Shown piece by piece: positions 13,812 through 31,473 of a stretch of DNA of 54,289 bases. The translations under genes were made by a program, and so were the position numbers. This stretch comes from a virus (lineage: Duplodnaviria; Caudoviricetes): positions 1 to 54,289 of the IMG/VR virus record IMGVR_UViG_3300038317_000129. The stretch is one strand, 5' to 3'. Below the pieces are notes generated by a model, which was given only the letters and a program-made list of their open reading frames with translations, ran no database searches and was not told the origin of the DNA. Position 1 is the first letter of the stretch, and every line of letters starts with the position of its first letter.

Positions 13812-14745
13812 ATATTTTTTGTACCCTGTATGAAGATGCGTTGACCATCCATTCTTCACCATCAAACACAACGGTGTAAGGGTCACGTATGAAAACCGGC
13901 TGATAGCCCGGTTCCTTCATCCTCGCATAATCGACAAGGCACAATACGTATTTGTTTGCCTTAATTTTGGCCACATCTGTTTCGTTCTCTGACCAGAAAA
14001 AGTGTGGGGAGCCAATGTAGCATTTCACTTCGATAAAACGGTCATAATGCGTTGATCCATTTGCTTCGTATGAAACAATATCATACCCGGCAGCTGTATC
14101 AAAATCAGAGATCCTCTTGATTTTCCCAGCCATCCCAGGAAGCCGGCTTTTTTCAAGACTAAGGACAAACTCCTCTGCCTCGAGTCCGCGACGGCTCTGT
14201 TCCTCCTGCTGCTTTAACAATTGTTCAAGCGTTATTTTCTTTTTACGACTACTTAATTGTTCCGCCCAGTCCGTTTCATAATCACCGGAAACGCTTATTT
14301 CTCCGTTTTCCTCTTTGTCCAGAGCACCGACCATTGTTAGGAAGTTCCGAATAGCCGCATAAGCTAATGGGAAAGCAGAGCGTTTGATGGTGAGATGACC
14401 TTTTTCGGCGTCAAATCCTGTAGCACCTGCATCAAATATCCCATCTTCAACGAGACGGTCTATACTTAGAGCCGCAAGATCTCCAATCGCCTCATCGCCG
14501 CTTTTGGCGGCAATCCCATTAAACTTGGCAGAAGGGAACACCATATCTGGCGTTGTTGACACTAATCCCAGGTATTCAAAAAAAGCCACAGCGCCCGGAC
14601 AGTTGACCACAATATTATTTTCCAAAGCGCATCTATTCCTGATCTCGTTCTTGCTAATTTTTTCTTTATCTGCCATTATCGAAATGAGGAACAGAACGCC
14701 ATTAACATTGCCTATGGAATTACATCTTTTTAGTTCTGTTAACAT
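13810..14745 (-). CDS. DUF3883 (NOV C-terminal) PD-(D/E)xK nuclease domain protein
   Basis: G..AEEFV...E, GYDI, RFIEVK, FFWSENE. Confidence 0.8.
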   Translation of the reverse strand: MLTELKRCNSIGNVNGVLFLISIMADKEKISKNEIRNRCALENNIVVNCPGAVAFFEYLGLVSTTPDMVFPSAKFNGIAAKSGDEAIGDLAALSIDRLVEDGIFDAGATGFDAEKGHLTIKRSAFPLAYAAIRNFLTMVGALDKEENGEISVSGDYETDWAEQLSSRKKKITLEQLLKQQEEQSRRGLEAEEFVLSLEKSRLPGMAGKIKRISDFDTAAGYDIVSYEANGSTHYDRFIEVKCYIGSPHFFWSENETDVAKIKANKYVLCLVDYARMKEPGYQPVFIRDPYTVVFDGEEWMVNASSYRVQKI

Positions 14746-16681
14746 ATTCCGCAATCAAGGCCTTGATATCGTCATCACCAGTCTCCAGCCCTGCATTTTC
14801 AAACAGCGGGATAGGCATGCTTTCGATAATTTCCCTGAGCCTTGTCTCCTTTTCGATTAGCCTGTTGTGGATAACTTCATCAATGGAATCCTCTGACAGG
14901 AGGTAATAATAATTTGTTTCTGTTCCCGGCTTTAGTCCGTATCTGTGGATGCGGTCCTTTGACTGAATGAAGTGCGCTGCGTTAAAGCTCCTTTCCATGT
15001 AGATGGCGTTATGGCAAGCCTTGTGCAGGGATATAGATTCCGAGACGGCAAATGGGTTCGCAATAATCACCTTGAAAGGGGAATCCGGCTTATGGAAATC
15101 AGCTATGATTTTTTCCCTTGTCTCAACTTCATCCTCGTCCTCATCACCTGTAGACACAGGCGTCGCCCCATATAATGTTTTACAGAGAATACCGTTTGAC
15201 AGGAGGTATTTTTCAAAGTCGAGTATATTCTGGATATAAATAGCCCAGACAACGACCTTCCCTCCCTCAGAAATAATCTCTTCAATTAGTTCACGTGCTT
15301 TTATAAACTTTGCCGGCGTTTCCAACGTGGCATATTGGAGGACATCAGCCACAAGGGAGGTATCTTCAGATACAGCCCCCGAATCAAAGCCCTCAAGGGA
15401 TGCGAAATTCTTTAGCGGAACACGGAGAAGGCTTGGATTCGTGGCCGCCTGCATCATGCGAAGCAGACGAGCCTTTACCAGATCCTGCCTGAACAAGTTG
15501 TCCTTGGTCGAAACGATATCGTCCATGTACTTTTTTTCTATCACATCGTATATTCTACGTTGCGCCTCGCCCATCGGAACAATAATGGGCTCATGCTCCG
15601 TAGCCGGAGGTATTCCCAAGTCGCTTTTTTTTACGCGGATAAAGAACGGCTCGATTGCCTGCAGTAATGTATTCACCCTTGGGTCATTATCCGACTTGCT
15701 CATATCCTTCAGTTGGTACACTTCAAACGGTATTATCTTCTTTGTCGGCCAGATGAACTTATAAAGGTTATAAAGATCCTCGTACCCATTCGGTGCCGGC
15801 GTACCAGTCAGGACGACCCTGGCAGAACAATATGAGGCAATGTCCAAAACACCGGCAGCGGTTACTCCACCGCTGGTATTCTTGATTTTATGGGCCTCGT
15901 CCAATACGACCATTACTTTATTATTCCGCAGAAAATAAACCAGCTCGTCTTTTAACGATGGGACAGAAGCATAGGACAGTAATGTGATCTTCGCTGGGAC
16001 TGGAGAATAAAGATACTGCTTTTTTTCTTCAATGGAAACCTTTCCGTTCAGCCTTTTTGTGGATGGTTCCTCCCCAAAGCATTCCTTGTATTCGAGTTCC
16101 CACGGACCAAATGCGCTGAGCGGCGAGATGATTAGCAACCGGTCAACGTATTTTTTGTCGTTCTCCGGAAGGTGTGACAGATAAGCGAATGCACCATAAA
16201 CAACGCTTGTCTTTCCAGCTCCGGGCACGGAAAAGTTACACGCGTTTTGTGAAAAAGCAAGATGATAAGCAGAAAGAAGCTGCAGTTCGTATAGACTCCT
16301 GTTAGGCAGATTTGTACTGACCGAATCAACGAATTGCTTAAAATCATCCTTGTTGCACTTGTTATCTCTGATCAGTCGTGCCTGTTCCGCAAATTCCCTG
16401 AATTTTTCCTCTTCGAGGGCATAGCTATTGACCGCCTCTGAAACCTCACCGGAATATAAAAGGTCTGCGTTTATATATCTGCACAACTTCTTGACTCGGT
16501 CGATACTTTTGTTGATCCCGTCACCAGCCTCAATAACAAGACCACCGTTTGTCTCTGTATACTTAAGGGTATCTTTCAAGTAGCGTAATGCACGTCTGTT
16601 ATTGAATATTGCCCCTATATCGCCGGTGATAATCAGAGAACTGTCGTCATTTCCATTTGATCCAATACACAGTTTCTTCAT
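14720..16681 (-). CDS. SNF2-family ATPase/helicase
   Basis: SVPGAGKT, LDEAH, LTGTP, QSKDRIHRYG. Confidence 0.9.
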   Translation of the reverse strand: MKKLCIGSNGNDDSSLIITGDIGAIFNNRRALRYLKDTLKYTETNGGLVIEAGDGINKSIDRVKKLCRYINADLLYSGEVSEAVNSYALEEEKFREFAEQARLIRDNKCNKDDFKQFVDSVSTNLPNRSLYELQLLSAYHLAFSQNACNFSVPGAGKTSVVYGAFAYLSHLPENDKKYVDRLLIISPLSAFGPWELEYKECFGEEPSTKRLNGKVSIEEKKQYLYSPVPAKITLLSYASVPSLKDELVYFLRNNKVMVVLDEAHKIKNTSGGVTAAGVLDIASYCSARVVLTGTPAPNGYEDLYNLYKFIWPTKKIIPFEVYQLKDMSKSDNDPRVNTLLQAIEPFFIRVKKSDLGIPPATEHEPIIVPMGEAQRRIYDVIEKKYMDDIVSTKDNLFRQDLVKARLLRMMQAATNPSLLRVPLKNFASLEGFDSGAVSEDTSLVADVLQYATLETPAKFIKARELIEEIISEGGKVVVWAIYIQNILDFEKYLLSNGILCKTLYGATPVSTGDEDEDEVETREKIIADFHKPDSPFKVIIANPFAVSESISLHKACHNAIYMERSFNAAHFIQSKDRIHRYGLKPGTETNYYYLLSEDSIDEVIHNRLIEKETRLREIIESMPIPLFENAGLETGDDDIKALIAEYVNRTKKM

Positions 16682-16695
16682 TCACTCAACATCCT

Positions 16696-17982
16696 TTACA
16701 GTCCGAGTATATCCTTGAACTTCGATACATATTCATCTAACGAAGATACACACGCACGCACCTTACTGTCGCTCATAAAACTCGCCTGGTCAACGTCTAC
16801 GACCGAAAGTGCCTGACACGCTTTCATAAGCTGCTGCAGAGGCTTGGCGGCGTTCGCGTGGTTATTTAGGATATCTATGCTCTGGACATAATTATCATCA
16901 AAAGAGTCCTCTACCTTCCGCTTCCACTGCTGGTCACGGGCCTTTAAAGCCCGACTCAGATCCGGTGGGTTCTTCGCCATTATATCTTCGACAGACTCTT
17001 CCTGGACGGAATCCGTAGCTGCGAAATGCCTATCACGGAACTGCTCCCATACTTCTTTCTTTGCAAAGAAGCTGGCGGCAGGGTTCTTGGCGGAAGGTGC
17101 TGAAATAATGTCTCGGAACTTTGTCTGTTCGAAATTGGCACGTATGTAATCAAACGCAATCAATTTCAAGTCAGAAACATCAGCTTCTGGATCGTAATCC
17201 CACATTGAAGCCACTCCGGCTTTATATTTTTTCAGCGCCGAATCGAGCTTTAGGAAGGAGTCCTCACTCTTCCCCAACTGAGTATACATACCCGAATATC
17301 CATATTCGTCCAGATACTCATCCATCAATTGGAGCGCAGACAGCATCGTGCGTACTTCTCCGGCTTTGCAATCCATCATCCCCGCAATATCATCGTCAGT
17401 AAAACCGGCGTCTTTCAGGTCCTTGCATTTCAGGTACTTCTCAATCGGGTTATAATCAACCTTGGCGTCCTCACCCATCTGGTAAGTGGTTTCCAGCGCA
17501 AGAATCTCTTTCTTGTCTGCACCTTCCGGGAGGATAATGGCAATAAAATATTGACAGTGGGTCTTCTCGTTGAATGGGATACTGTCGTCCGCCATTATAT
17601 TATTCAGCAAACTTGCACGGCGGTTACCATCAATAATCATACCATCGGCGGTCACGATACCGTGCCTTTGCTGATGCTCTTTCAGAAGACGTTCTTTGGT
17701 TTTCTTGTTCGCATCCGGCTTGGAGTCCCACAGGAATTTCTCTATAATTTTCTTATCCCCGGGGTCTTCGGGATCCAATTGGTGGTTCTGCCGTTCATAC
17801 GACTTGACAACGCTCCCGATCCTTCCGTTATATGGATTATAGACAAGATACTCCAGAGGAATTTCGTATGCGTCCAAGGTAATGATGCTGCCGTGATAGG
17901 TAATAGGAATACCGGTCCGGCACGCTTTCTCTGGGTGGTCGGTAAATTCTTTCAGTTTTGCTTTTCTCTCAGTAGCGTTCAT
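16696..17982 (-). CDS. ParB/Srx N-terminal domain protein
   Basis: YNPYNGRI and GIVTADGMIIDGNRR motifs; helical C-terminal region. Confidence 0.75.
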   Translation of the reverse strand: MNATERKAKLKEFTDHPEKACRTGIPITYHGSIITLDAYEIPLEYLVYNPYNGRIGSVVKSYERQNHQLDPEDPGDKKIIEKFLWDSKPDANKKTKERLLKEHQQRHGIVTADGMIIDGNRRASLLNNIMADDSIPFNEKTHCQYFIAIILPEGADKKEILALETTYQMGEDAKVDYNPIEKYLKCKDLKDAGFTDDDIAGMMDCKAGEVRTMLSALQLMDEYLDEYGYSGMYTQLGKSEDSFLKLDSALKKYKAGVASMWDYDPEADVSDLKLIAFDYIRANFEQTKFRDIISAPSAKNPAASFFAKKEVWEQFRDRHFAATDSVQEESVEDIMAKNPPDLSRALKARDQQWKRKVEDSFDDNYVQSIDILNNHANAAKPLQQLMKACQALSVVDVDQASFMSDSKVRACVSSLDEYVSKFKDILGL

Positions 17983-17999
17983 CTTTAATTCCTCCGCAG

Positions 18000-18929
18000 T
18001 TATAATTCGTCGATGTGGGCATCTATAATATCTTCCAATAGCCCCATATTCTTAAAATTCAAAACATAGTCCGAACACCTATGGATCTCTTTCAAATCTG
18101 CCTGCCTGCCAATCCAGCCAGCCCCATCCAGAAAGTTCACATAGATGATATTATTACCAGAAGCACGTTCTGATTTTATGACTTCCTCTGTTTTCCTTGC
18201 CGCTGTCTTTTTGCTACCCTGACTACTCGAAGTAGTTACGCTGTACGAAACGTCAAAGATAAGTTTCGGCTTATTTGGAGATTCTATGACGAAGCTGACG
18301 GCCCGGTCGAGTTTAGGCACGCGCACATTTTTCTGATACTCCAAGCCATATTTAGCACAGACACGTTTCAGTTCGTTTTCTACATCAGCAAGAACCGCAT
18401 CACCTATCATATTGCTGTATGTGCCTTCCAAGCTACGCTTCACAAGCTGGCGAACACTGTCTTCATCCTTTATTTTTGCGAGTGTATTGGCATCCATAGA
18501 CATATTTTCCAAATAGAATGCCGGGATGCAGGCCTGCATATTAGGATCGTTCTTCCCATTCCATATAAGGTTCAAGATACTTTCCATCATTACCGGGCTT
18601 TCCATCATTGCTGAACGGATCTTACTCAGCCCCCATTCTGTGCCGAAAACAAATCCACGGTCTTTCCGTATCATAGAAACCATGCGTTTGAACCTCTCCT
18701 CAGAAATCTCCATAACGGATGTAAGGCGATCCAACGCGTCCTTGTGATCGATAATATATTGTTTCAATGTTTCCTTGCTGGTAATCGTTTTCAATCCGAC
18801 GAGAATGTCCGCAGTCTGCGTATCGATCATATCCTTAATTGACTTCTCGCAGCCCTTATTGATATAAAACATCGTTGTCGAATTGAACAGTTCCTCGTAG
18901 GACAGCTTTTGTACATTGTTAACAGCCAT
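18000..18929 (-). CDS. DpnII/BanI-fold restriction endonuclease-like protein, probably with a degenerate active site
   Basis: SYSVTTSS and NFLDGAGWIGR motifs; RAVSFVI where D is expected. Confidence 0.65.
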   Translation of the reverse strand: MAVNNVQKLSYEELFNSTTMFYINKGCEKSIKDMIDTQTADILVGLKTITSKETLKQYIIDHKDALDRLTSVMEISEERFKRMVSMIRKDRGFVFGTEWGLSKIRSAMMESPVMMESILNLIWNGKNDPNMQACIPAFYLENMSMDANTLAKIKDEDSVRQLVKRSLEGTYSNMIGDAVLADVENELKRVCAKYGLEYQKNVRVPKLDRAVSFVIESPNKPKLIFDVSYSVTTSSSQGSKKTAARKTEEVIKSERASGNNIIYVNFLDGAGWIGRQADLKEIHRCSDYVLNFKNMGLLEDIIDAHIDEL

Positions 18930-18959
18930 TTCTGAACCCTCCATCGTTGTGATGTGTTA

Positions 18960-19013
18960 ATTATATCACGGCGAAGAGTGAAAGGCAATATACAAATTAC
19001 ACTTTTTTGCGTA
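18960..19013 (-). promoter_or_regulatory. SigA promoter of the four-gene operon with adjacent operator
   Basis: TTGCCT (18983-18988), 17 bp, TGnTATAAT (18960-18965); TACAC-TTTTTT-GCGTA at 18998-19013. Confidence 0.7.
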
Positions 19014-19074
19014 TTATCTAGCGTCCCATATTATCTGTTTTTTGTGCTTGTATATATCCCATCTTTTTTACGTA

Positions 19075-19090
19075 TACGCTTATAAGCGTA
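19075..19090. promoter_or_regulatory. Palindromic operator TACGC-N6-GCGTA (defence operon)
   Basis: TACGCTTATAAGCGTA, a perfect palindrome. Confidence 0.65.
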
Positions 19091-19128
19091 ACTATATCTC
19101 AAAAAAAATAAAACTTGAAACGTTTACA

Positions 19129-19620
19129 CTATGTTTCCTCATCCGTCGAATAAACATCCTCGGCAGATACAATCGTTTTTTCAAATATCGTTTCTTCTAT
19201 AACTTTTACACAACCATTTAAATCCTTTTTTATGTCTTTTCCCCAGAACCGTATTACAGTCCAATCAAGAGATGCTAATTCCTGATCAACCTTTTTGTCG
19301 CGTTCCATATTTTCTTCAATGTGACGGATCCAATAATCCGGATTCTTCCCGTGCGAAAGCCGTTCTTTCAGTTTATCCCAATCTTTTCCATGAAAGAACT
19401 CACTGTCACAAAAAATTGCTATCTTCTGTTTTGTTATCGCTATGTCTGGAGAACCCGGAAGTTTACTATAGTTCTTTCGATAGCGGTAACCATCGTGCCA
19501 TAAGCGCTTCCGAAGCAAGATTTCAATGCTGGTATCTTTGCTACGAATCTTCTGCATGTTCTTCCTGGTTTTTTCAGAAACCTTTCCGAACTGCCGCTCG
19601 ATTCTGCGCATAGACGACAC
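19129..19620 (-). CDS. vsr: Very short patch repair endonuclease
   Basis: NMQKIRSKDT..E, GSPDI, FCDSEFFHG, N..YW, WTVIRFW. Confidence 0.9.
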   Translation of the reverse strand: MSSMRRIERQFGKVSEKTRKNMQKIRSKDTSIEILLRKRLWHDGYRYRKNYSKLPGSPDIAITKQKIAIFCDSEFFHGKDWDKLKERLSHGKNPDYWIRHIEENMERDKKVDQELASLDWTVIRFWGKDIKKDLNGCVKVIEETIFEKTIVSAEDVYSTDEET

Positions 19621-19726
19621 CTCCTCGCCGAGCTTTCTTCATGTATTCATCCACACGGCTGTTATTAATTATTTACTGTTCTCCGCTATTATTTTAGTGG
19701 TTTATAATTCGCTTTTCTACATCATT

Positions 19727-19921
19727 TTATTCTATTGCACTCTTGCCGCTGTTGACCCACTCATCGAGCTCCGAGCACTTGAACTTCCAGAGCTTACCGA
19801 TCTGGTGCGCTGGCAAGTCCGGCTTTTTCTTTATCCATTTTCGCAGAGTGCCGGGTTTTATATTCAAGTATGTTGCAGCATCTTCAAGACTAATGTAACC
19901 ATCATCCAGTTTGTCTTTCAT
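19727..19921 (-). CDS. Excisionase-family (HTH_17/MerR-like) DNA-binding protein
   Basis: SLEDAATYL.I..GTLRKW...LPAHQIGKLWKFK.SELDEW. Confidence 0.85.
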   Translation of the reverse strand: MKDKLDDGYISLEDAATYLNIKPGTLRKWIKKKPDLPAHQIGKLWKFKCSELDEWVNSGKSAIE

Positions 19922-19994
19922 GCCCGCCTCCCAATCTCAGAAATCACACTAATTCTATTGTAACCCATTATAACACATCTGCGTCTGTTTTTTA

Positions 19995-20030
19995 GTCATT
20001 TCATGGCATTTGTTGGTATCAAGCGGCATT
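19995..20030. repeat. Four 10-bp-period hexamer repeats upstream of the HTH_17 gene
   Basis: GTCATT, GGCATT, GGTATC and GGCATT at 19995, 20005, 20015 and 20025. Confidence 0.5.
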
Positions 20031-20462
20031 TCATTCGACCCGTTCGGTTCCGAACCGATCCCTGATATAGCAGTCAAAGCAGCAGTACTTTCTGTTCCGA
20101 TTTCCATAGGCTGTGAACTTTTTCCCGCAGCATGCGCAGATAAACTCGTAGTTTGCTTTCCGGTTGATCTGGTTCCGGTTTTTGCTCCACCATTTCCTGC
20201 GGCACTTATCACAGCAGAATATTTTCTGTTTCCGCTTCGGATTCTGCTCGATCGGCGCTCCGCAGTTCCTGCAATGCGATAGTTTCACATCATTGTATGT
20301 GCCGGCCTGTGCTTCCTTCTTTGCTATTCCGGCAAAACCGTGCCGCCTGCAGTATGATTTTACAGTTTCGCGGTTAAGGCCGAGTTCCTTCGATATTTCT
20401 CCGTATCCGACGCCTTTTTTCCGCATTCTCTCTATTTTATCTTTCTGCGCTTCATTCATCAT
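20031..20462 (-). CDS. HTH plus zinc-finger protein typical of recombinase modules
   Basis: GYGEISKELGLNRETVKSYCRR; CRNCG, FCCDKC, CACCG, YCCFDC. Confidence 0.75.
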   Translation of the reverse strand: MMNEAQKDKIERMRKKGVGYGEISKELGLNRETVKSYCRRHGFAGIAKKEAQAGTYNDVKLSHCRNCGAPIEQNPKRKQKIFCCDKCRRKWWSKNRNQINRKANYEFICACCGKKFTAYGNRNRKYCCFDCYIRDRFGTERVE

Positions 20463-21882
20463 AAAATACCTCATTCCTTTTTCTGTCATATGTCGGGATT
20501 GGCTTTTCGCGTGTACTCCCATCGATTAAGCAGAACCGCAGCATCTTGTCCGGCAGTACGGTTATCTGCTTGATGGTAAGCGCCAGATCCTCTTCATCCG
20601 AAAGCATCCGGGATATATCCCGCTTCTTCAGTTTCTTAATCCACTCCCTTACGCCCGGAATCCTGTCTGCCGGAATGATGCCGACGAGAATATCCGTCAG
20701 CACATCTGCCAGCTTCCGCTCAAGCGCAATGTCCCTCGCCGTATCGTGAATCACATAATGGAGCGCCTTGTCCGCCACGTTATGCGTTTTGCACCGCGCT
20801 TCCTTTCTCCACCTGTTCCGGCACTGCCATATGATTTTCCGGTACTCATCGTTTGAATGCCACGGACGCGGTGTAAATGTTCCGCCACATTTCCCGCAGA
20901 TGAGCTTGCTGGAAAGCACAGTCACGCCGGAATACCGCTGATTGTTTTCAAAGCTGCGCTCCTTCATACGCTCCTGCACATAATCAAAAAGCCACGGGGA
21001 GATAATCGCCTCGTGGTCTTCTCTAACATAATACTGCGGCAGTTCGCCTTCGTTTTTCTTTACCTTCTTGGTCAGGTAATTGACTGTAAAGCTTTTTTGA
21101 AGTCTGCTGTCGCCCTTGTACTTTTCATTTGATAATATGCTGCGGACGGTGGAACTCCACCATTTCCCGTTTTCAGCGTTCGGCGTGTCAGCGCCTTCGT
21201 TCTGCATGATTCTGGCAATCTGCGGGGATGCGTAGCCCTGCAGGAAGAGGAAGAATATCCTCCGGACCTCATCAGCCTGTTCCTCGTTGACCACCATCGT
21301 GTATTTTTCATCGCCCTTGTCGTAGCCAAGGAAACGGCCGTAAGCAAGGCTCATCTTTCCATCGGCGAACCTCTTTCTCTGTCCCCATTTGACGTTCTCC
21401 GAAATCGACCGTGATTCCTCCTGGGCGAGGGAGGACATGATGGTCAGTAAAAATTCACCCTTGGAATCCAGAGTGAAAATGTTCTCTTTCTCAAAGTAAA
21501 CGCCGATTCCTTTTTCCTTCAGCTTGCGGATGATGGTGACCGTATCCACGGTGTTCCGTGCAAACCTCGATATGGACTTTGTCAGTACCAGATCGATGTC
21601 ACCGTTCAGGCAGGCGTCCACCATTCTGTTGAAGCCCTCGCGCCTGTTCGTGCTCAGTCCGGAAATCCCGTCGTCTACAAACACCTCCACGAACTCCCAT
21701 CCGGCATGCTGCAGTATTTTCTTTCTGTAATAATCAGTCTGCGCGGCGAGGCTCGATTCCTGATCTTCATGGTCGGTCGATACTCTTACGTAGGCCGCCA
21801 CGCGCTGTACTGCCTTTTCCGCTTCTTTCATCGTCGCCGGGCGCGGGACAGCATTGATACGTGTAACTACTCTATCTTTCAA
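20452..21882 (-). CDS. Large serine recombinase (integrase)
   Basis: YVRVST catalytic motif, KSISRFARN, LAQEESRSISEN, recombinase domain, Zn ribbon CGKCG. Confidence 0.93.
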   Translation of the reverse strand: MKDRVVTRINAVPRPATMKEAEKAVQRVAAYVRVSTDHEDQESSLAAQTDYYRKKILQHAGWEFVEVFVDDGISGLSTNRREGFNRMVDACLNGDIDLVLTKSISRFARNTVDTVTIIRKLKEKGIGVYFEKENIFTLDSKGEFLLTIMSSLAQEESRSISENVKWGQRKRFADGKMSLAYGRFLGYDKGDEKYTMVVNEEQADEVRRIFFLFLQGYASPQIARIMQNEGADTPNAENGKWWSSTVRSILSNEKYKGDSRLQKSFTVNYLTKKVKKNEGELPQYYVREDHEAIISPWLFDYVQERMKERSFENNQRYSGVTVLSSKLICGKCGGTFTPRPWHSNDEYRKIIWQCRNRWRKEARCKTHNVADKALHYVIHDTARDIALERKLADVLTDILVGIIPADRIPGVREWIKKLKKRDISRMLSDEEDLALTIKQITVLPDKMLRFCLIDGSTREKPIPTYDRKRNEVFYDE

Positions 21883-22069
21883 TTACATTCACCCCGTCTC
21901 CAATTTCCCCGTCCGCCACATCAACCTCAAGAAATGGTGGCTCGAAATGTTCCTGCAATTTCTTCAAAGCAAGCTGTGTCTCCCCGGAATCAATAACGCC
22001 ATCACGTTCCAGATTGGCAAGCAGCCATTTGCACACCCTGTATTCAACTTCTTTCGTTAGCAAGTTCAC
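21872..22069 (-). CDS. Small recombinase-associated protein (SHOCT-like)
   Basis: 65 aa; AAGGAG RBS; overlaps the recombinase start. Confidence 0.55.
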   Translation of the reverse strand: MNLLTKEVEYRVCKWLLANLERDGVIDSGETQLALKKLQEHFEPPFLEVDVADGEIGDGVNVIER

Positions 22070-22092
22070 TCACTCCTTTCATTTTCAGTATG

Positions 22093-22125
22093 ACATCTAT
22101 CACTCTGAATGCCCTGAAAGTCAAG
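22093..22125 (-). promoter_or_regulatory. Conserved 33-nt promoter motif upstream of the recombinase operon
   Basis: CTTGACTTTCAGGGCATTCAGAGTGATAGATGT; matches 46273..46305 and 47938..47970. Confidence 0.6.
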
Positions 22126-22333
22126 GAAACTGGCGATTCTAAAGGGATAACTTATTGTGAACACGCATAACGATTTATGCTTTGCACATCGTTACAGAAT
22201 AACCCTTCGTTAAGGAATTAAACGAAATCAAAGACACATCGTTCAACAGTTAAGAAAAACTGCCAGACTTGCACCACGCCTGGAAGATGCCGCTGAGCAG
22301 CAGAACTTGGACTTGAATCAGCAACTGGAAATG

Positions 22334-22371
22334 AAAAAAGCTCCTGCACACCGCATCGGTGGTCAGGAGCT
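22334..22371 (-). terminator. Intrinsic terminator just inside the element A boundary
   Basis: Minus strand AGCTCCTG-ACCACCGATGCGGTGTG-CAGGAGC-TTTTTT. Confidence 0.6.
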
Positions 22372-22422
22372 ACTGTTTTCATCATTTTTGATATTATGTA
22401 ACAAAAGAGCCGTCTGCGGAAA

Positions 22423-22833
22423 TCAGTCGGCTTGTATCATTTCGGTCACGGCTTCATCGATATAGATCATCTTGATTTTGCCAAGGTAGGTCTCCTGCAG
22501 GAGCTTCAGCACTTCCAAATTGTCGCCTTCAATATAAAGGTTTTCGGTTGTGTCGAAGTTGACGCTTTCCTCCCGGCAGGGGCGGAGCGTCTTATTGATC
22601 GGCGCGTTGGCAAGCAGGACGGACTTTTTCTTGTCCGGCCATGTGAACTGATAGCGCTCCTCGCGCCCCTCCACCACAAAGTCGGAAAGCTCCTGCTTGA
22701 GCATATCAAAATCCACCACCCGCGTGAGCTTGCCGTCCACCAGCGATTCGGTCACGCAGTTCGGGAAAAGCCGCGCGATTTTTTCAACGTTTTCGTCCAC
22801 TTTATTGATGCTGTGCATTTTCAGCTTGTCCAT
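22423..22833 (-). pseudogene. mod: Type III R-M methyltransferase (Mod), truncated at the DPPY motif
   Basis: ERYQFTWPDK, NLYIEGDNLEVLKLLQ, KIKMIYID then EAVTEMIQAD-stop instead of PPYNTG. Confidence 0.9.
22450..22465. other. Putative attachment junction (attL/attR) of element A
   Basis: Abrupt loss of mod homology after the Asp codon (22456-22458); recombinase about 570 bp away. Confidence 0.65.
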
Positions 22834-22847: not shown

Positions 22848-23114
22848 TTATTCGTGGGTGTACCATGTTGAACATGGGCTTACGCTATATTCCGATACAC
22901 GGTAAAGCTGTTTCTCTCCGCTTTCAATACGCTGATAAGTGTCTTGCGTAGACTCAATATCGTAAGAATAAAAGATGTTTTCTGGGTCAACCGCTACTTT
23001 CAATCGACGAAGGACTCTGCCTACCGTGTCTCCATCTGTAGAAAAAACGCAATCTCCTTTTTCAAAACAGTCCTGTTTTGTTGTTAAAGTAAAAGCAAAG
23101 ATATCATCAGGCAT
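22848..23114 (-). CDS. Small hypothetical protein between DUF4391 and mod
   Basis: GGAGG RBS; start overlaps the DUF4391 stop; 88 aa. Confidence 0.55.
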   Translation of the reverse strand: MPDDIFAFTLTTKQDCFEKGDCVFSTDGDTVGRVLRRLKVAVDPENIFYSYDIESTQDTYQRIESGEKQLYRVSEYSVSPCSTWYTHE

Positions 23115-23733
23115 TTTCAATATCCTCCAGTTTTTTATTCAACTCTTGTAATTGCCGATACAGTTCAAATTTCTTTTTCGGCTGAACCTCGCTCTGCGTT
23201 CGTTTTTCCAGCTTCTCTATTTCTTTTTGCAGTTTCAGGATTCTTTCCTGCCGCTGTAAACGGGTATCAAAATCTTCACCCGGCAAAACTTCTGTTAAGC
23301 TGTCCCGCAACGCAATTTGCTCCAAAAAGCCCTGCCATACCGCGTCCAGCGTAAAGCCTTTCACTTGGAGCGTGATTTCGTCATCGGGCACCCATGCCGT
23401 GGTGTAGAGCTTCCCGTAATAAACCGCAAGCTGCGCTTTGTCCTCAAACCGCAGCAGAAACAGCAGCTTGTGCGGATTCTGCCGGGCAATGTTCTCTACG
23501 ATGCGCCCGTCAAACTGCTGCTTTTTCAATTCAACGGTCAGCACCAGTATCTCGTTAATTTCATCCCCTGCCTCCAGATTGAGCGTAGCGGCGGTCAGGG
23601 AGTTTGAGAGGGTGATGCGCTTGATGTCGGCAACAAATTTCTCCTTCAGGTCGCCGCTTAACGTCAGGTGTTGATAGAACGCCTCCTTTGGAAGCACACG
23701 TCCGACGGTCGTTGCGGAAGGCAGATGTATCAT
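23107..23733 (-). CDS. DUF4391 protein
   Basis: LP.AT.VGR.LPKEAFY N-terminus; EVQPKKKFELY C-terminal coiled coil; Type III R-M context. Confidence 0.85.
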   Translation of the reverse strand: MIHLPSATTVGRVLPKEAFYQHLTLSGDLKEKFVADIKRITLSNSLTAATLNLEAGDEINEILVLTVELKKQQFDGRIVENIARQNPHKLLFLLRFEDKAQLAVYYGKLYTTAWVPDDEITLQVKGFTLDAVWQGFLEQIALRDSLTEVLPGEDFDTRLQRQERILKLQKEIEKLEKRTQSEVQPKKKFELYRQLQELNKKLEDIENA

Positions 23734-26700
23734 TCGCTCATCACCACCAAAAAGCAGATCAGCTCAAAATCGTCCATCCCGCGGACATCACCGGAGAGAA
23801 AGGTCGTCTGTCCGCTGCCGAAAAAGCTGTCGATATCGCTTTCTTTTTTTACATCGATAATCGACGCGACCGCCTGCCGGAGCAGTTCGGAGATTCGCCG
23901 CATATCCTTGCCGTCCTTTGTTTCACGGTTGAAAACACGACAGGCGGACAGGTCCGGCTCTGTCTTGCCGCGGCAGAGGCGGCGCATCCGGTCGAGCGTG
24001 GCTTTCGGGTCGAGGTGGTTGCATATCACTTCGCCGTCGTCCCCGATATACACCATGTAAAACGGGTGCAGACGGTTCTGATTTTCAATATTGACGCCCG
24101 GGTTGATGTTTTTCAGCACGAATATCACGCCCGGTTTTTCCCCGCGCACCACGGCATTGATGCCGAACGGCGTGCGGTCAAGGCTGGGATGTTCTTTCAT
24201 ATAGGCCAGCAAATCCATGCGGAATTCGTTTAATCCCAAATCCATGATGGAAATGCCGGAGTTCATTTCCTCTAAATCCACTACTTCATTTTGCAGCTTT
24301 TCGAGCTGGGCGCGGCGGTAACGCAGGTCGCCGCTTTCGTCCTGATTGATATAGTCGTCGTCGCCCGTGGAGGTCATAACGGAAATGCGCATACGCGCCT
24401 CGACGCGCTCCTTGAGGTTAATATACTCGTCCAGCGATAAATCCGGCCAGAAGTTTACCAGCTGGATCACTGCGTTGCGGCTGCCGATACGGTCGATACG
24501 CCCGAAACGCTGAATGATGCGGACGGGATTCCAGTGAATGTCGTAGTTGATGCAGGTGTCGCAGTCCTGCAGATTCTGCCCTTCGGAAACGCAGTCGGTC
24601 GCAATGAGTATGTCGATAACGTTGTGGTCATTTGGCATAGTCAGCGATTTTTCTTTTGCGATCGGAGAAAAACAGGTCAAAACGGAATTGATGTCGCACG
24701 GGAAGTGCGGGATGGTCGTTCTGCCGTCCACACCGCCCGTGACAAGCGCCGTGTTCAATCCATACTTGTCCTTGATCACCTTGGAAAGATGTTCATACAA
24801 ATACTCCGCCGTATCCGCAAACGCGGTAAAAATCAGCACCTTCTTGTTGCCCTCGTTGATGGGATGCTCGATTTTGTCACAGACGACGCGAATAAGCTGG
24901 TTCAGCTTATAGTCGTACTGCGGCGTGATATCCTCAATCATCAAAATCAACAGTTGCAGCACCTCAAGATCGGACTGCAAATCACGCCGCCATGAAACAT
25001 AATCCATGTCGCGCAGGTCGATTTTGAATTTTTTGCCCACGCTGAACAGTTCGGTGTTTTGGTCGTCCAAATCAAAATCATCAGCCCCCGCGACATTTTG
25101 CACGGATATAGATGCACCCGGCTGGAATGCGTCAATCTGCTGCACCGTATCATAATAGGCATTATAAATGCGGGTGACGGTGAGCTTGAAGGAATGGACG
25201 GAGCTTTCCATTCGCTTAAGCAGGTTTATGTTCATCAGACGCTGAATACCGCGCTCACGTCCGCTCTGGGAAATGGTCTGGGCGTGTTTGGAGTCCGGGT
25301 CTATGTACTTGCTTATTTTGCTTGCAAGGATATATTTTGACGGCGTGTAAATGGAGAGATTCAGCTCCATCAACTGCGCATAAATTTCCTGATAATTGAT
25401 GGCATTCGGCTTGTCTGTCAGCTTTGGATAAAGTGAAATCGGTTTGTTCCGCTTCGGGAAGCTGCCTATTTCCGTTGTGTCATAATAACGCTGAATATGT
25501 TTGCGGGAGCGGGCAATCGTCACACTGTCCAGCACCTCGAAAAAGTCAAAATCGAGCCGCTTTAAGAGTGCGTCGGTCGTGCGCTCTTCCGGCTCCAGCT
25601 TTGTCCATGTGTTATAGACCTTTTGTGCCTGACGGAAGACGGAGTCGATATCGGTTTTCGTGTTCAGCTTGTCGTTGATCACATCGCTGTGACCTTCATA
25701 TGCCAGCGCAAGCTGATTGCGCAGGTCATAAAAGCGATTATTGACCGGCGTCGCGGAGAGCATCAACACCTTTGTCTTGACACCGGTGCGGATTACGCGG
25801 TTCATCAGCCTTGTGTAGCGGTTTTCTTTTTCGTTGTCTTCGCCCGTGGCGGCGCCGCCATTACGGAAGTTATGACTTTCATCGATAACCACCAGGTCGT
25901 AGTTCCCCCAGTTGATACGGTCAATTGGCAGTCCCATGACGGTGTCGCCGCGATCGCGGGAGAGGTCGGTATGATACAAAATATCATACCGCAGACGATC
26001 CTTCGCCAAAGGATTGTTGATTAGATTGCCGCGATAAGTCATCCAGTTATCCTTCAGCTTTTTCGGGCAGAGGACAAGGACGCTTTTGTTGCGGCCCTCA
26101 TAATACTTAATCACTGCCAGTGCGGTAAAGGTTTTGCCAAGACCGACACTGTCGGCAAGAATACAGCCGTTGTACTGCTCCAGCTTATTGATGATGGCAA
26201 GGGCGGCGTCCTTCTGAAAGTTATAGAGCTTATTCCAGATAAGGCTCTCCTTAAAGCCGGTCGCTTCATTCGGCAGAACGTCCTCAGTGATGTCCTCAAG
26301 AAACTCATTGAAAATATTGTACAACGTCATAAAGTAAATAAGCTCCGGCGCGTTTTCCTGATAGACGGCGGATATGCTGTCAACAACAAACTGCGTGACC
26401 TCCTGAAGCCGAGCTTCATCTTTCCACACAGCGTCGAAAAGTTCAATAAATGCGGAGCTTGCCGGAAACTCCATGCGGCTGACTATATTGCTGATATTAT
26501 TGCCGCGTTCGCAGCCCAAGTCAACGGTGGTAAAATTGTTGACCGGCATATATGTGTATCGATCGGCGGCGGATTCCACGTTGATAAAGTTGTTCATTCC
26601 ATCTCGGGTAATGTTTGATTTGAAGGTGGCTTTTTTCTGAATCCATGCCGCACATTCTCTTGCGATTGCTTTTTGCGTCAGCTCATTTCGGAGTTTAATT

Positions 26701-26963
26701 TCAAATTCCGTACCATAGATGCTCTTTTCGCGATGAAGACGCGGAATATAAAATTCACGCTTTTCCGTTGGCGTCTTTTCAGCGATGAATGTCGGTGAAG
26801 TAAAGATAAAGCGCAGCGATTCGATATCCTTGAGCTGCGTCTTTAATTCCTGATAGGCATAAATAGAAAAGCAGGCGGCGGCAATAGAAACACGGCTGCC
26901 CTTGGTAATTGTTTTTACAAGGTCATCTCTGACCACGTTTGTTGTATTATTGAAGACTTCCAT
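23730..26963 (-). CDS. Type III R-M-associated SNF2/DExH helicase
   Basis: ADSVGLGKT, DESH, LSATP, QRFGRIDRIG; N-terminal SIAAACFSIYAY. Confidence 0.9.
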   Translation of the reverse strand: MEVFNNTTNVVRDDLVKTITKGSRVSIAAACFSIYAYQELKTQLKDIESLRFIFTSPTFIAEKTPTEKREFYIPRLHREKSIYGTEFEIKLRNELTQKAIARECAAWIQKKATFKSNITRDGMNNFINVESAADRYTYMPVNNFTTVDLGCERGNNISNIVSRMEFPASSAFIELFDAVWKDEARLQEVTQFVVDSISAVYQENAPELIYFMTLYNIFNEFLEDITEDVLPNEATGFKESLIWNKLYNFQKDAALAIINKLEQYNGCILADSVGLGKTFTALAVIKYYEGRNKSVLVLCPKKLKDNWMTYRGNLINNPLAKDRLRYDILYHTDLSRDRGDTVMGLPIDRINWGNYDLVVIDESHNFRNGGAATGEDNEKENRYTRLMNRVIRTGVKTKVLMLSATPVNNRFYDLRNQLALAYEGHSDVINDKLNTKTDIDSVFRQAQKVYNTWTKLEPEERTTDALLKRLDFDFFEVLDSVTIARSRKHIQRYYDTTEIGSFPKRNKPISLYPKLTDKPNAINYQEIYAQLMELNLSIYTPSKYILASKISKYIDPDSKHAQTISQSGRERGIQRLMNINLLKRMESSVHSFKLTVTRIYNAYYDTVQQIDAFQPGASISVQNVAGADDFDLDDQNTELFSVGKKFKIDLRDMDYVSWRRDLQSDLEVLQLLILMIEDITPQYDYKLNQLIRVVCDKIEHPINEGNKKVLIFTAFADTAEYLYEHLSKVIKDKYGLNTALVTGGVDGRTTIPHFPCDINSVLTCFSPIAKEKSLTMPNDHNVIDILIATDCVSEGQNLQDCDTCINYDIHWNPVRIIQRFGRIDRIGSRNAVIQLVNFWPDLSLDEYINLKERVEARMRISVMTSTGDDDYINQDESGDLRYRRAQLEKLQNEVVDLEEMNSGISIMDLGLNEFRMDLLAYMKEHPSLDRTPFGINAVVRGEKPGVIFVLKNINPGVNIENQNRLHPFYMVYIGDDGEVICNHLDPKATLDRMRRLCRGKTEPDLSACRVFNRETKDGKDMRRISELLRQAVASIIDVKKESDIDSFFGSGQTTFLSGDVRGMDDFELICFLVVMSE

Positions 26964-27242: not shown

Positions 27243-29081
27243 TTAATTGGGCTTAGTTCTCAAAAATCCATAGCGCCCATTGTGATCATCCATTGTAAAT
27301 TCAATAAGGGTCGCCTTACTGTAATCGACATGCTCCGGAATCTCGTTTTCGGCAATGATTACCTGATTAGCACCACAATTTTCTATCATGTACTTAAACA
27401 AGGATTCTTTCATTCCGGGTGTAGCTTTTTCGTTTTCGGCCATTTGTATTTTTTTCTCTTTTAAAGAAAGAATCGGTGAATCTAAAACCAGAAGGTGAAG
27501 TGCATAGGTGCCATGCTCCTCCAGATATCTCATAAGGTTAAAAAGCATTATTGTGTTCAAAAATGCCCGGTAACCTTTACCCTCATTTCGCTTATGCTTC
27601 CCGCCAACAACCGCATCTGCTGTATCAATAGAGATGTACGCCTCTGGCCTGTTCGGATAAGCGCAATCCTTAACCATTTCACCAAAGCTGTCACTTAATA
27701 GTTTCCAAGCCGTTTTATCGAATTGCTTTTTTGCGTCAAACTTCAGGTCGCTGTCATCTTCTTCATTCTCTTTATTAAAAACATCGGCGCTGAGTTCGTT
27801 GGACATCCGCTCAATAGCGATCAACTCCTCTCTCGTTAAGAGGACTCTCTTATACGCATCTACGGTTTCACGTAGTTCAGCTGCTCTGGGACGTAATTTC
27901 CTATTAATGAGGTTCGTGATCGTATCATTTCTTGCGTTCAACCTTTTTAGCTGTGCTTCCAAAGCGGCTATGTCTGCCTCAGTATCCTTTTCGGTTACAT
28001 CTAAATCCCGCAGCTGTAAGGTTATTCGAGCAAGTTCCGCATTGGAAGCATCGATATATGATTCCCTTTGCTTATCAGTTTTCTTGATGGTTCCATCGCA
28101 GAATGGACATTTAACCGAACGCGTAATATTACTGGCTTTTCTGTCACCATCAGCAATGAATCTTAAGCGTTTCAAATCAGAGTTGTACTGCGACCGCAAG
28201 GTGTGATAACGGCCACGTAGAAATCGCGCCTCTTCAAGTTTTGCGCTGGCTGTATATATTTGTTCAAGCAGCCACCTGCTTTCTTCCGAGGCATCTACAA
28301 TTTCTTTTTCAACGCGTTCAATTTCGTCGAGGATAGATTCGATCTTTGCTGAAATATCGACGTCTGCCTCTTGAGCAATCGATTCTTCAATGGCGCCTTT
28401 TCTGTCAGTCAGTTCTTTGATTTTTTTGTTCAGGTAGATGATAACGCCGGTCTTCTGCGTTGCTTTCCTGTCGCGCTCTTCTTGACTCACCTCAGGCACC
28501 AATCTGTGAAGATCATCGCCGGTCATCATATACAACAAGGATGTAAGACTTGCTGTAATTTTCGAATATCCCGGCATATCAAATGCTGTACCTTCTCTAA
28601 AAATATGATTTTCATCGATATAGAAGAAATGTACCATTGTTCGGAAAGTCAGGTCGCCATCGTCAAGGTTTTGCTTCACGATAATTTTGGGCCTTTTCTT
28701 CATACCCATCAATTTAAGCAGCAAATCACTATAGTCCTTTGCGGATAGCTTATACTCACGGCTTTCGATTTCGGGCACATCTGTTGCGATCGTTACTGTT
28801 CCATCCCCGGTTTCGCCGTTTTTGCCATCAACAATTTTTCTCTGGGCAGAAAGACTATAGCCATCATCTGTTTCTAATGTCATAGATATCGTGTCATATC
28901 CGGTATCGGAAAAGGTAAACGGAATCTTCCCTCCAAACATAAAGTTTATACAATTCATGACGTGAGACTTACCTGTATTAGAGGGCCCGTGAATGATGTT
29001 AACACCGTCATTAAACTGAACAGAGGAATACTCTACGTTAGCGCCAGAAGCAGCTATCTGTTTGATGATAAATCTTCTCAT
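27243..29081 (-). CDS. ABC-3C/Lamassu SMC-like ATPase (LmuB-like)
   Basis: Walker A GPSNTGKS, coiled coils, CPFC Zn hook, EGKG signature, LVLDSP Walker B. Confidence 0.85.
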   Translation of the reverse strand: MRRFIIKQIAASGANVEYSSVQFNDGVNIIHGPSNTGKSHVMNCINFMFGGKIPFTFSDTGYDTISMTLETDDGYSLSAQRKIVDGKNGETGDGTVTIATDVPEIESREYKLSAKDYSDLLLKLMGMKKRPKIIVKQNLDDGDLTFRTMVHFFYIDENHIFREGTAFDMPGYSKITASLTSLLYMMTGDDLHRLVPEVSQEERDRKATQKTGVIIYLNKKIKELTDRKGAIEESIAQEADVDISAKIESILDEIERVEKEIVDASEESRWLLEQIYTASAKLEEARFLRGRYHTLRSQYNSDLKRLRFIADGDRKASNITRSVKCPFCDGTIKKTDKQRESYIDASNAELARITLQLRDLDVTEKDTEADIAALEAQLKRLNARNDTITNLINRKLRPRAAELRETVDAYKRVLLTREELIAIERMSNELSADVFNKENEEDDSDLKFDAKKQFDKTAWKLLSDSFGEMVKDCAYPNRPEAYISIDTADAVVGGKHKRNEGKGYRAFLNTIMLFNLMRYLEEHGTYALHLLVLDSPILSLKEKKIQMAENEKATPGMKESLFKYMIENCGANQVIIAENEIPEHVDYSKATLIEFTMDDHNGRYGFLRTKPN

Positions 29082-29539
29082 TCTCGCGGATCCTCCTCCA
29101 TCAATGACTTTGCTGACATTTTATTTATGTTGGAAATCAGTTCTCGTTCAGTTTTACCAGTGACACTTTTAATGACAAGCTGCGCATTCCGGCGATATTC
29201 TGCCGCATACTCGCTTTCCAGTGAATTGCAATAATCTTCGCCATCTGATGAAATGATATAAGCTATTCCGTCATTGAGATTCAACGCCTGTACCAATCCA
29301 TATAAGACCAAGGCTTTCAGGGCAGTTTTTACAGCTTCGCGTCTGGAAGCAAACTCACTGAATTTATACTGGTTGTCGCCATTTAGGTTAGCTTCCGTTA
29401 TATTAAACGTCTTTCCATATGTAGTCATAAAATCAATTGCATAAAGCATATCCAACGTCTGCGGATATTCATAGACATCCAAAAGGATTAGAAGACGAAG
29501 GGCATTTTCAAACGTTGTGTTAAACAGCTTGTTCGGCAT
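29078..29539 (-). CDS. ABC-3C middle component (MC2, LmuC-like)
   Basis: LFNTTFENALRLLILL, DF...YG, NLNG; overlaps both neighbours. Confidence 0.8.
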   Translation of the reverse strand: MPNKLFNTTFENALRLLILLDVYEYPQTLDMLYAIDFMTTYGKTFNITEANLNGDNQYKFSEFASRREAVKTALKALVLYGLVQALNLNDGIAYIISSDGEDYCNSLESEYAAEYRRNAQLVIKSVTGKTERELISNINKMSAKSLMEEDPRE

Positions 29540-30512
29540 TTTTTCTCACCCAGCCCTTCAATCTATCTTCCTTCACGAGAAAATGGCAAACCCCTTTCTT
29601 CTGCGGATTGCCTATCCAATCTGTATCCCGGCTTAACCAACATCTATCAACCCGTGTCAGCGATGCCTGCGCCATAACTTTGCGGAGACGTGTCATGCCA
29701 TCTTTGTAATCATCTTCCCAGACTTCCTTCACGCCCTCATATGTTTCGTCCTTCAGTATTTCAAACTGGTCAGGGTCATTTTTTCGATAGATATCACGCG
29801 TTCCCCGTCTAACAGCTTCAGCTGCAAAATAGTACCCGCGTTGTTCGCTGAAGTGCTTCTGATACTCGAGGTATTGAGGCAGTAAAGAAAGGTCGAAATT
29901 TTCAATATGCTCCAATTCACCATAAACATCAGCCAAGGCCATCGCATATTTTCGTTCTTCCATTATCACGTCATCTGGTATTTCGATAGGCTCCAACGGA
30001 TGCTTCTTATACTCTTCCAGTTCCTGAGAATTTTCTGTTATCGCATCCTGCGACAAGACGTTATCTCGTGTCAGTGAATATAGAAATACATTTGCCAAGA
30101 ACTCGGCAAGTGTATTTTTTTGCCCCCATTTCATCAATTCAGATTTCCTGCTGTCAGAAATTTGTTTGTCCGCTTTTATGACGCCTCTTAGATGAAATAT
30201 GACTTCATCCTCCATCCCCTCAAGGAAGCGGGATACGATCGATTTCTTAAAATACCCAACGATTGTATTCGCAACTCTTTGATCTGTGGAAGCGCTTCGA
30301 ATTGCACGGAGAGGATTTCCGCCTTTTTCTCGGTTCATGATTTTACTGGCCGTTCCTTTGCTGACAGTTATAGCGCATCCATTGCTATTTTCCAGTCCTA
30401 CAGGAAGCGCAACAGCATCGTACAGCAGCTCAATCAAATCCGGATCGGCAACAGTGTCCCGAAAAGCATTCTTTATTTCGATAAGCACTGTAGCAAAAAC
30501 AAGCTCGCTCAA
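29520..30512 (-). CDS. ABC-3C effector-position protein (CTD6-like C-terminus, LmuA-like)
   Basis: QR..YFAAE...GVCHFLV.E..L.W C-terminal domain; TTG start after GGAGG. Confidence 0.75.
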   Translation of the reverse strand: MSELVFATVLIEIKNAFRDTVADPDLIELLYDAVALPVGLENSNGCAITVSKGTASKIMNREKGGNPLRAIRSASTDQRVANTIVGYFKKSIVSRFLEGMEDEVIFHLRGVIKADKQISDSRKSELMKWGQKNTLAEFLANVFLYSLTRDNVLSQDAITENSQELEEYKKHPLEPIEIPDDVIMEERKYAMALADVYGELEHIENFDLSLLPQYLEYQKHFSEQRGYYFAAEAVRRGTRDIYRKNDPDQFEILKDETYEGVKEVWEDDYKDGMTRLRKVMAQASLTRVDRCWLSRDTDWIGNPQKKGVCHFLVKEDRLKGWVRKNAEQAV

Positions 30513-30529
30513 GAAAAACACCTCCAGAA

Positions 30530-31413: not shown

Positions 31414-31422
31414 TCACTCCGT

Positions 31423-31467: not shown

Positions 31468-31473
31468 CTGATT

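Follow-up and report, generated by a model that had tools for sequence, protein, structure and literature searches.

How does a Type III modification gene come to break off, in frame, within the codons of its catalytic motif, and what would such a break mean for the cell that carries it? No barrier to phages and gene transfer is more common than restriction-modification (R-M) systems, and a mod gene broken in this way lies, beside a large serine recombinase gene, in the stretch of DNA analysed here, a 54,289-bp IMG/VR record that was taken whole and that we call the window. The record contains two partial prophages head to head, with one set of head genes, four SNF2 genes and two PolA genes, and no tRNA genes were found in it. 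CheckV rates it as 100% complete, which is misleading: two incomplete prophages meet here at a true attL. The left-hand prophage, phage A, is transcribed leftward throughout, its C5 methylase excepted, and is made up as follows, reading away from the junction:

1..22456, no strand assigned: partial temperate phage A, comprising integrase, cargo, and lysogeny and replication arm, with the late genes beyond the record end
21872..22069, minus strand: 65-aa ORF between attL and integrase, no Pfam or PHROG match
20452..21882, minus strand: large serine recombinase (integrase) of phage A, 476 aa (profile search)
between integrase and Vsr, minus strand: HTH protein (profile search)
19129-19620, minus strand: Vsr (profile search)
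18000-18944, minus strand: Type II REase-like gene (profile search)
after the REase-like gene, minus strand: 428-aa ORF
14720-16681, minus strand: ZorD-like SNF2 gene (profile search)
13810-14754, minus strand: NOV_C/PD-T4-1-like protein (profile search)
12320-13774, plus strand: C5 MTase (profile search)
11082-12121, minus strand: HTH and M78 peptidase
between the HTH/M78 pair and PolA, minus strand: a further SNF2 gene
4897-6888, minus strand: PolA
1559-4048, minus strand: D5-type primase
between the primase and the DUF1492 gene, minus strand: resolvase-like nuclease
236-646, minus strand: DUF1492 sigma-like regulator

We call A a phage on the strength of its lysogeny and replication genes and its relatives; the record holds none of its structural genes, and its 22 kb gave no megablast match among the INPHARED phages. 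At the left end of the window, positions 1-121 match at least 8 different contigs of the MAG G010 at 75-89% identity, and an independent contig from sequencing run X9 stops at about the same place, where repeated conserved phage sequence probably breaks assemblies. Contigs from runs X2 and X5 skip 126 nt within the Vsr-like gene (19251-19378), the shorter side being only 21 nt, and are probably homologues of other organisms. To the right of the junction lie the broken gene, the island to which it belongs and the second phage:

22423..22833, minus strand: truncated Type III mod ORF, made of Mod residues 1-126, 10 phage-encoded codons and a stop
within 22848..26963, minus strand: 90-aa ORF upstream of mod
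23107-23733, minus strand: DUF4391 gene upstream of mod (profile search)
23730-26963, minus strand: 1077-aa SNF2 helicase upstream of mod (profile search)
27243..30521, minus strand: Lamassu / ABC-3C (LmuB ATPase, MC2, CTD6 effector), part of the mod island
30886..54289, plus strand: partial phage B, oriented rightward with replication genes first and TerL, portal and capsid last, truncated where the record ends; its contents are DUF2800 nuclease, Gp2.5-like SSB, PolA, VapE primase, SNF2, ParB-N6/N4 MTase, C5 MTase, TerL, portal and capsid

Phage B also has nucleoside 2-deoxyribosyltransferase-like, ParB-fused N6/N4 methylase, 651-aa C5 methylase and amidoligase-like genes (35987-36418, 43055-46235, 46595-47344), and these may constitute a DNA-modification or anti-restriction set.

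The minus-strand ORF 22833..22423 translates as MDKLKMHS...LGKIKMIYID, followed by EAVTEMIQAD and a stop. This agrees with the original prediction, made from the letters of the sequence, in which Mod was read as KIKMIYID and then EAVTEMIQAD-stop, with the break right after the Asp codon; that codon is 22458..22456, within an ATCGAT at 22456-22461. Integration in the DPPY codons of a Type III mod gene, the central claim of that prediction, is borne out by comparison with intact relatives: residues 1-126 of the stub are 100% identical to the 625-aa proteins P0003 and P0004, both of which go on as PPYNTGNDF, and 22456/22457 is also where the window's DNA homology to L002, L003 and L004, loci with intact mod, comes to an end. 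P0003 is built as a Type III Mod should be, with the DPPY of a beta-class N6-adenine methylase placed before the target-recognition domain and SAM motifs, and the window has only residues 1-126 of it; P0003 carries PF01555 and matches PADLOC MTase_III over positions 2-620 of 621 (4e-250). Longer relatives of Mod gave about 8,000 matches, and among the best 120 listed PF01555 is present in 120/120. The stub itself has no Pfam match, because the methylase domain starts at DPPY. The Mod encoded in the window is truncated before its catalytic motifs.

Profile search found no Res subunit in the window. In the 85% identical island of L129, res directly follows mod (REase_III 7.6e-287, with ResIII and RE_endonuc), so that the window holds the disrupted remnant of a Type III R-M system. 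The intact island, as found in L002 and L004/L129, runs Lamassu, SNF2, DUF4391, (a small ORF), mod, (a 281-aa ORF in L002) and a 1041-aa Type III res, and the island in the window is 84-88% identical at the nucleotide level to L002, L003 and L004 up to about 30,900. Its Lamassu / ABC-3C trio is complete, with an LmuB-like ATPase matching at 6e-163 in profile search, and adjoins the SNF2-DUF4391-mod cassette upstream; the two travel jointly in L002 and L004/L129 (~85% nucleotide identity). The island may be cargo of phage B or host DNA: it is present with unrelated flanks in L002 and L004/L129, window 30886-31413 has no counterpart at the protein level in the flanks of L129 and L002, and no portal gene is found in the records of L002, L003 and L004. 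As a side observation, a conserved SNF2 helicase of 1077-1098 aa (PADLOC candidate 'HKD+Snf2') and DUF4391 stand ahead of mod-res (window 22848-26963; L002 6101-15921; L129 5394-14622), and SNF2-DUF4391-mod-res apparently form a single operon, a five- or six-gene Type III variant. The small ORF between DUF4391 and mod varies, being 90 aa long in the window, 105 aa in L129 and absent from L002.

A record that sets two incomplete phages head to head and is nonetheless rated 100% complete raises the suspicion of a chimera, formed at a short sequence shared by two phages, and metagenome assemblers do make such joins. Another way to view the stub is as the decayed remnant of a mod gene, cut by deletion or illegitimate rearrangement beside an old and immobile prophage, and the mod 3' half and res are indeed absent from the record. 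We aligned contigs of four public runs to window positions 18000-27000. In X9, which comes from a different study, one 26,376-nt contig spans 18000-22566 with 24 differences, of which at least 15 lie in 22462-22549, mostly at three-base spacing and all within 105 nt of mod, against at most 9 over the 4.46 kb of phage DNA; further on, the contig runs into DUF4391/SNF2 sequence that has diverged. We read it as the same phage at the same nucleotide of another mod allele. In X11, from another study, a contig matches 20971-22458 with one difference and then has 28 nt encoding ...SSIKCIYID in frame with the Asp, which by eye looks like a third mod-like allele. In X2, a 5,248-nt contig is identical over 18000-22459 before passing into other DNA, and beside 22432-22458 this extension completes a symmetric site, with two 25-nt half-sites around TC (GA in the mod sense). 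Contigs of X5 cover both sides near-identically, at low depth, and none bridges the junction. The phage side is 99.8-100% identical between studies and the right-hand partner changes, a pattern that marks the left side as a constant mobile unit and the right side as variable.

The chimera was therefore a reading that we could hardly credit: the independent X9 contig bridges the junction, the same break occurs in seven other loci from other samples (described below), and the existence of an empty attB and of an attP-type form is consistent with conservative exchange at a single dinucleotide. The decayed remnant is scarcely more believable, given a stub 100% identical to a living intact allele, a phage side that stays constant across studies as its partner changes, and a break at one nucleotide each time. 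The X9, X11 and X2 contigs exclude both the assembly chimera and the immobile relic.

The same contigs allow the attachment sites to be reconstructed, as that prediction had proposed. The partner arm in X2 (30 nt) recurs in L260, where it is joined via GA-T to CCAGCATGCGGTAGCGG, encoding D/PACGSGS (the slash marks the break) of a Type I hsdM gene whose 3' part matches N6_Mtase at profile positions 51-308. Since the X2 arm is shared with L260 at hsdM, it belongs to the element (as the P arm), which makes the X2 junction attP-type; this junction could come from phage DNA that is free or concatemeric, or from the boundary between elements lying in tandem. Beside the P arm in L260, which is identical to the X2 arm, lie tandem recombinases, GmrSD and a glyoxalase gene. 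The unoccupied site is found in a contig of MAG G010, L341, the first 194 nt of which equal window 22649..22456 (194/194), with identity stopping exactly at 22456; the contig continues CCGCCCTATAAC... and encodes Mod residues 63-625 at 99% identity. It is best read as the empty attB of the window's own mod allele. The intact allele and the attP-type junction both come from other data sets than that of the lysogen, and the presence of these two forms in other samples fits reversibility; contig data cannot show excision in a given cell.

Searches for further copies gave no exact match for a 27-mer of the P' arm in viral_contigs, none for a 30-mer of the P arm in 259 loci, and none, with up to 2 mismatches, for a 23-mer of the P arm in MAG G010, to which the left 6 kb of phage A has weak or short matches only. 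The record does not reach the far end of phage A, where the mod 3' half would lie, and its only PF01555 match is the ParB-methylase of phage B; a mod 3' half joined to phage A was not found for this allele. The 5' half of mod is seen at the attL of the window, and attR is known only from related elements, with attR-type halves in L132, L134 and L260.

The integrase starts 574 bp from the break, where a large serine recombinase had been predicted at about 570 bp inward, and has the full domain set of that family in the expected order: Resolvase PF00239 (7.6e-36, residues 28-176), then Recombinase PF07508 (2.2e-18), then the zinc ribbon Zn_ribbon_recom PF13408 (4.4e-11), in the ORF 21882..20452. 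A profile search of this protein found no DUF4368. The elements of the attachment site, with half-sites counted as 25 nt from the GA in all junctions compared, are these:

22457..22458, minus strand: putative crossover dinucleotide, GA of the Asp codon (TC on the plus strand), from the geometry of the junctions
22432..22456, minus strand: P' half-site of the phage attachment site, TGAAGCCGTGACCGAAATGATACAA in the mod sense
22459..22483, minus strand: B half-site, formed by the codons of mod for (G)KIKMIYI; L341, the contig with the empty site, has the identical sequence

Phage-side sequence is constant to 22458 in X11 and to 22459 in X2, and in L189, L264, L266 and L267 the base after GA is a G from the phage arm, changing Asp to Glu; this geometry would centre the exchange on the GA of the Asp codon. 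Read as mirror images, the P and P' half-sites agree at 14/25 positions, a score reached by 2/5000 shuffles, and they form imperfect inverted halves around the 2 bp of the inferred crossover, without long direct repeats. Each attP half-site ends in TTGTATYA/TRATACAA and has GCCGT near its centre, and the distal motif TTGTATYA/TGATACAA lies 17-25 nt from the GA in all arms, on both sides of every junction. A near-identical P' arm is present in L180, L261, L184, L182 and L191. The B half-site differs in the X9 and X11 alleles that bear the same phage, and in a shuffle test the attB half-sites, taken in register, had no likeness to attP or to each other beyond chance, with the exception of P vs B_mod (12/25 identical, reached by 95/5000 shuffles). 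That the mod and hsdM attB half-sites are not recognisably alike in register counts against the explanation we prefer. The ATCGAT palindrome, to which the original prediction had drawn attention, was rejected as a site feature and is incidental: other junctions read ATAGAT, ATTGAT or ATTGAG.

The mod gene is broken at the same codon in other records, five of them attL-type (L005, L007, L008, L184, L189) and two attR-type (L132, L134). Among 61 viral-contig loci with a Mod N-terminus, three (L005, L007, L008) stop at residue 126 and continue with another tail (IKTPRLIQFN...), with tandem serine recombinases 2.3 kb away. A C-terminal Mod query returned 44 loci, 42 of which were screened, and two of these (L132, L134) start at residue 125/126 with a P-type arm before it; the element end has tandem recombinases in L132, and McrBC and Schlafen/AlbA genes in L134. 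Two of the 80 metagenome loci kept for the integrase query (L184, L189) have the arrangement of the window, Mod 1-126, about 500 bp and then an integrase, which is 65% (L184) or 62% (L189) identical to that of phage A. The Mod fragment gave no tblastn match in 66 viral loci with integrase relatives. Judged from the sequences, the break at the Asp codon of mod is not a matter of chance.

Several of these loci have further features of their own. In L132 (9998-16610), two mod genes stand in tandem before one res; an element with tandem recombinases interrupts the first of them at DPPY, and the other is intact. Element ends beside methylase 3' halves carry defence genes, namely McrBC, Schlafen/AlbA_2 and a DEAD helicase in L134 (2075-9771) and GmrSD in L260 (3655-7081). 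Two ATG codons contributed by the P arm of L260 (7200-7260; MLHCINDMTATD/PACGSG...) stand in frame before the 3' half of the target, which therefore forms a 5'-truncated methylase ORF with a phage-derived start at attR.

We then consider whether the integrase family as a whole has a preference for such genes. Relatives were examined at 28 loci with an integrase at least 59% identical to that of the window (L063, L064, L180-L189, L191, L193, L261-L274), and were sorted by what lies at the junction:

no readable junction: L064, L181, L187, L188, L193, L273 (n=6)
attP-type, no recombinase in the 2-9 kb upstream: L185, L268, L269, L271, L272 (n=5)
DNA N6-methylase gene, verified by profile or homology: 9 loci, 8 distinct junctions
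 verified target mod: L184, L189
 verified target HsdM_N + N6_Mtase, cut at profile position about 42-54: L180, L191, L264, L266
 verified target MmeI_N + MmeI_hel: L182
 verified target a 272-aa N-6 methylase: L186 = L063
methylase-like, weak or by eye: L183 (N6_Mtase 5e-4, below cut-off), L265, L267, L270, L261 (FxTP...D/E at the break) (n=5)
not methylase or no match: L262, L263, L274 (n=3)

Thus, 9 of the 17 readable non-attP junction loci are in verified methylase genes, and in every verified case the break falls at the Asp (or Glu) before a Pro in motif I (D-P-x-C-G-x-G) or motif IV (DPPY). Integrase relatives at 50-79% identity sit at the motif I Asp-Pro in Type I hsdM, MmeI-like and small N6-methylase genes, and a 50% relative with an L005-type arm (L066/L194) is likewise in hsdM. 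For the L186 target, 101/101 homologues carry PF02384, and the intact form reads ...VSVND/PCCGAG. NCBIfam gave no match for 7 target ORFs, and Pfam none for the targets of L267, L270, L263 and L274. In L262 (Selenomonas bovis), an 82% relative of the integrase, with a 65-aa ORF in the position matching the window's 21872..22069 ORF, occupies an intergenic site after a SRAP-like gene, which is not a methylase. The integrase of L261 is 100% identical to the window's and abuts a different 42-nt partner (...TEINKVYD at the break), so phage A is not restricted to mod; no copy of this partner other than that in L261 was found in G010, and viral_contigs gave no match to a 29-mer taken from it. A 51% relative in L190 (7827-9206) lies just downstream of an ORF that by eye has a RumA-like rRNA methyltransferase C-terminus, a setting reminiscent of streptococcal ICEs in which single serine integrases target rumA.

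P' arms that are almost the same lead into different genes (MmeI-like in L182 vs hsdM in L191; mod in the window vs hsdM in L180), the B arms differ widely, and three junction partners are not methylases or have no match. This is what might be seen if the recombinase were relaxed, multi-targeting or transposon-like, needing little beyond GA(T)CC, with the methylase pattern arising from a small and homology-selected sample. We think this improbable. Three different mod alleles are entered by phage A at one and the same codon, the 9/17 share of verified methylases is far above any plausible genomic share, and the integrase is without DUF4368, the domain which, in the available text of Durrant et al. 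2022, is carried by the multi-targeting serine recombinase clade (PMC10083194).

A stronger alternative is that the choice of target is neutral. Methylase motifs are conserved, widespread, non-essential and often on mobile DNA, and could serve simply as a safe harbour, with loss of restriction as a side effect and no regulated switch. Serine-integrase elements are described, in what is available of one study, as disrupting the dispensable conserved genes rumA, hsdM and mutT (PMC4701971), the same phage occurs in at least two kinds of partner (the window vs L261), one relative (L262) is at a non-methylase site, and no regulatory link to defence is visible in the sequence. The verified targets, however, are all R-M methylases (I, IIG/L-like, III) or a small N6-methylase, from families that share little nucleotide similarity, and conservation of a single site is therefore hard to invoke; the inserted elements also carry replacement defence genes at their ends. 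We regard neutral choice as a serious contender that nevertheless falls somewhat short of an even chance.

The explanation we favour, with a probability of roughly 0.8, is that the serine integrase of phage A joined its attP to an attB in motif IV of mod, that this silences the system reversibly, and that the same clade targets the Asp-Pro codons of other methylases. Recombination of the phage attP with the mod attB, with a 2-bp crossover at the GA of the Asp codon, would make 22456-22458 the attL, and would leave a 126-residue Mod stub without any methylase motif. An entire prophage would then stand between the promoter and both the catalytic portion of mod and the res gene that follows it. 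Type III Res has no activity outside a complex with Mod, the HsdR of Type I systems depends on HsdM/HsdS to act, and MmeI-type enzymes need their own methylase and specificity part; because each of these depends on the methylase part, loss of the methylase should silence restriction rather than lead to self-cleavage. The system would thus be switched off without self-restriction, while phage A would supply its own Type II R-M/Vsr and other defence-type genes. Recombination by serine integrases is conservative, with excision requiring a directionality factor, and because the exchange is conservative, excision would rebuild an intact mod. The expected attR of phage A would read P arm, GA, TCCGCCCTATAAC..., and lead into mod residues 127-625 and res, and members of the same integrase clade would use as landing sites the Asp-Pro codons within methylase motifs, whether the gene is Type I, MmeI-like or Type III.

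The original prediction went further, holding that one element disarms the R-M system of another while bringing its own defence. Of this, the site-specific insertion in mod and the separate cargo (C5 methylase, REase-like gene, Vsr, ZorD-like SNF2 and NOV_C/PD-T4-1-like protein) were found, and the disarming itself is what we would expect of a Mod cut in this way. Whether the phage profits from silencing and replacing the resident system, with excision used as a switch, is a further step: set against the neutral safe harbour, we would place such an adaptive reading somewhere between doubtful and evenly balanced. We propose only tentatively, and would sooner doubt than assert, that the integrase clade, in phages and in small tandem-recombinase defence cassettes, is specialised for the Asp-Pro of motif I or IV as a strategy of anti-restriction and defence replacement. 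The targeted classes (Type I, MmeI-like, Type III) would be those in which methylase loss also abolishes restriction and the host survives, and the incomer would silence the resident system, install its own, and be able to return the old one on excision. As part of the same proposal, a Mod starting at DPPY with all catalytic motifs might still be made at attR, as an orphan methylase uncoupled from Res.

If it is routine for temperate phages and defence cassettes to enter Type I, IIG/L-like and Type III methylase genes, then lysogeny would itself reset which DNA a cell accepts, defence islands would turn over as one element knocks out another, and methylomes could flip with prophage excision. 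An integrase family with a natural attB in widespread sequence constrained by a protein motif would also be useful for genome engineering of non-model anaerobes. The locus serves, too, as a warning about viral records rated '100% complete', since such a record may consist of two partial prophages that meet at a true integration junction.

The closest known parallel is that of the streptococcal ICEs, for which the available text of Ambroset et al. 2016 describes serine-integrase triplets, insertion into and disruption of hsdM, repeats of 2-8 bp, and a suggestion that excision occurs when the gene is needed (PMC4701971). Both there and here, a large serine recombinase element disrupts an R-M methylase gene that excision could restore, and the tandem recombinase genes beside the target recall those in L260, L132 and L005/7/8 (PMC4701971). 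Unlike those elements, which in that account are conjugative and use Type I hsdM, the element in the window is a phage of Clostridia from anaerobic digesters and fermentation, with a single integrase and a Type III mod gene entered at DPPY. Neither the motif I/IV Asp-Pro position nor a range of targets that takes in Type I, MmeI-like and Type III genes appears in the streptococcal account, as far as its available text goes (PMC4701971). Durrant et al. 2022 likewise, in the portion available, report no enrichment of targets in defence genes; closely related integrases in several target genes are common to DUF4368 recombinases and to the relatives described here, whose targets, unlike the AT-rich generic sites of the former, belong to one functional gene class (PMC10083194).

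Cassettes of the SCCmec type (ccrAB) insert at the 3' end of rlmH, an rRNA methylase gene that is not inactivated. As in the present elements, large serine recombinases occur in tandem there, the target is a methyltransferase gene, and several elements are arrayed at a single site, whereas insertion here is in the catalytic or SAM-binding motif of DNA methylases, which it truncates. The phage phi10403S/A118 in comK is a gene-interrupting prophage that exemplifies 'active lysogeny'. For SPbeta in spsM and skin in sigK, the available texts describe a prophage that splits a host ORF, which a serine integrase and a directionality factor rebuild precisely (PMC5499854, PMC5025042). The targets of SPbeta, skin and phi10403S are developmental or competence genes with regulated excision, whereas the gene interrupted here is one of defence, and neither a directionality factor nor regulation was found for it. 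Among open-access full texts, we found no prophage inside a Type III mod gene and no Asp-Pro motif position as a common landing site. Thus, gene-interrupting serine-integrase elements, and an ICE in hsdM, are already known, whereas the use of Type III mod at DPPY as a target appears to be new, and the wider link between one integrase clade and restriction methylase genes is possibly general.
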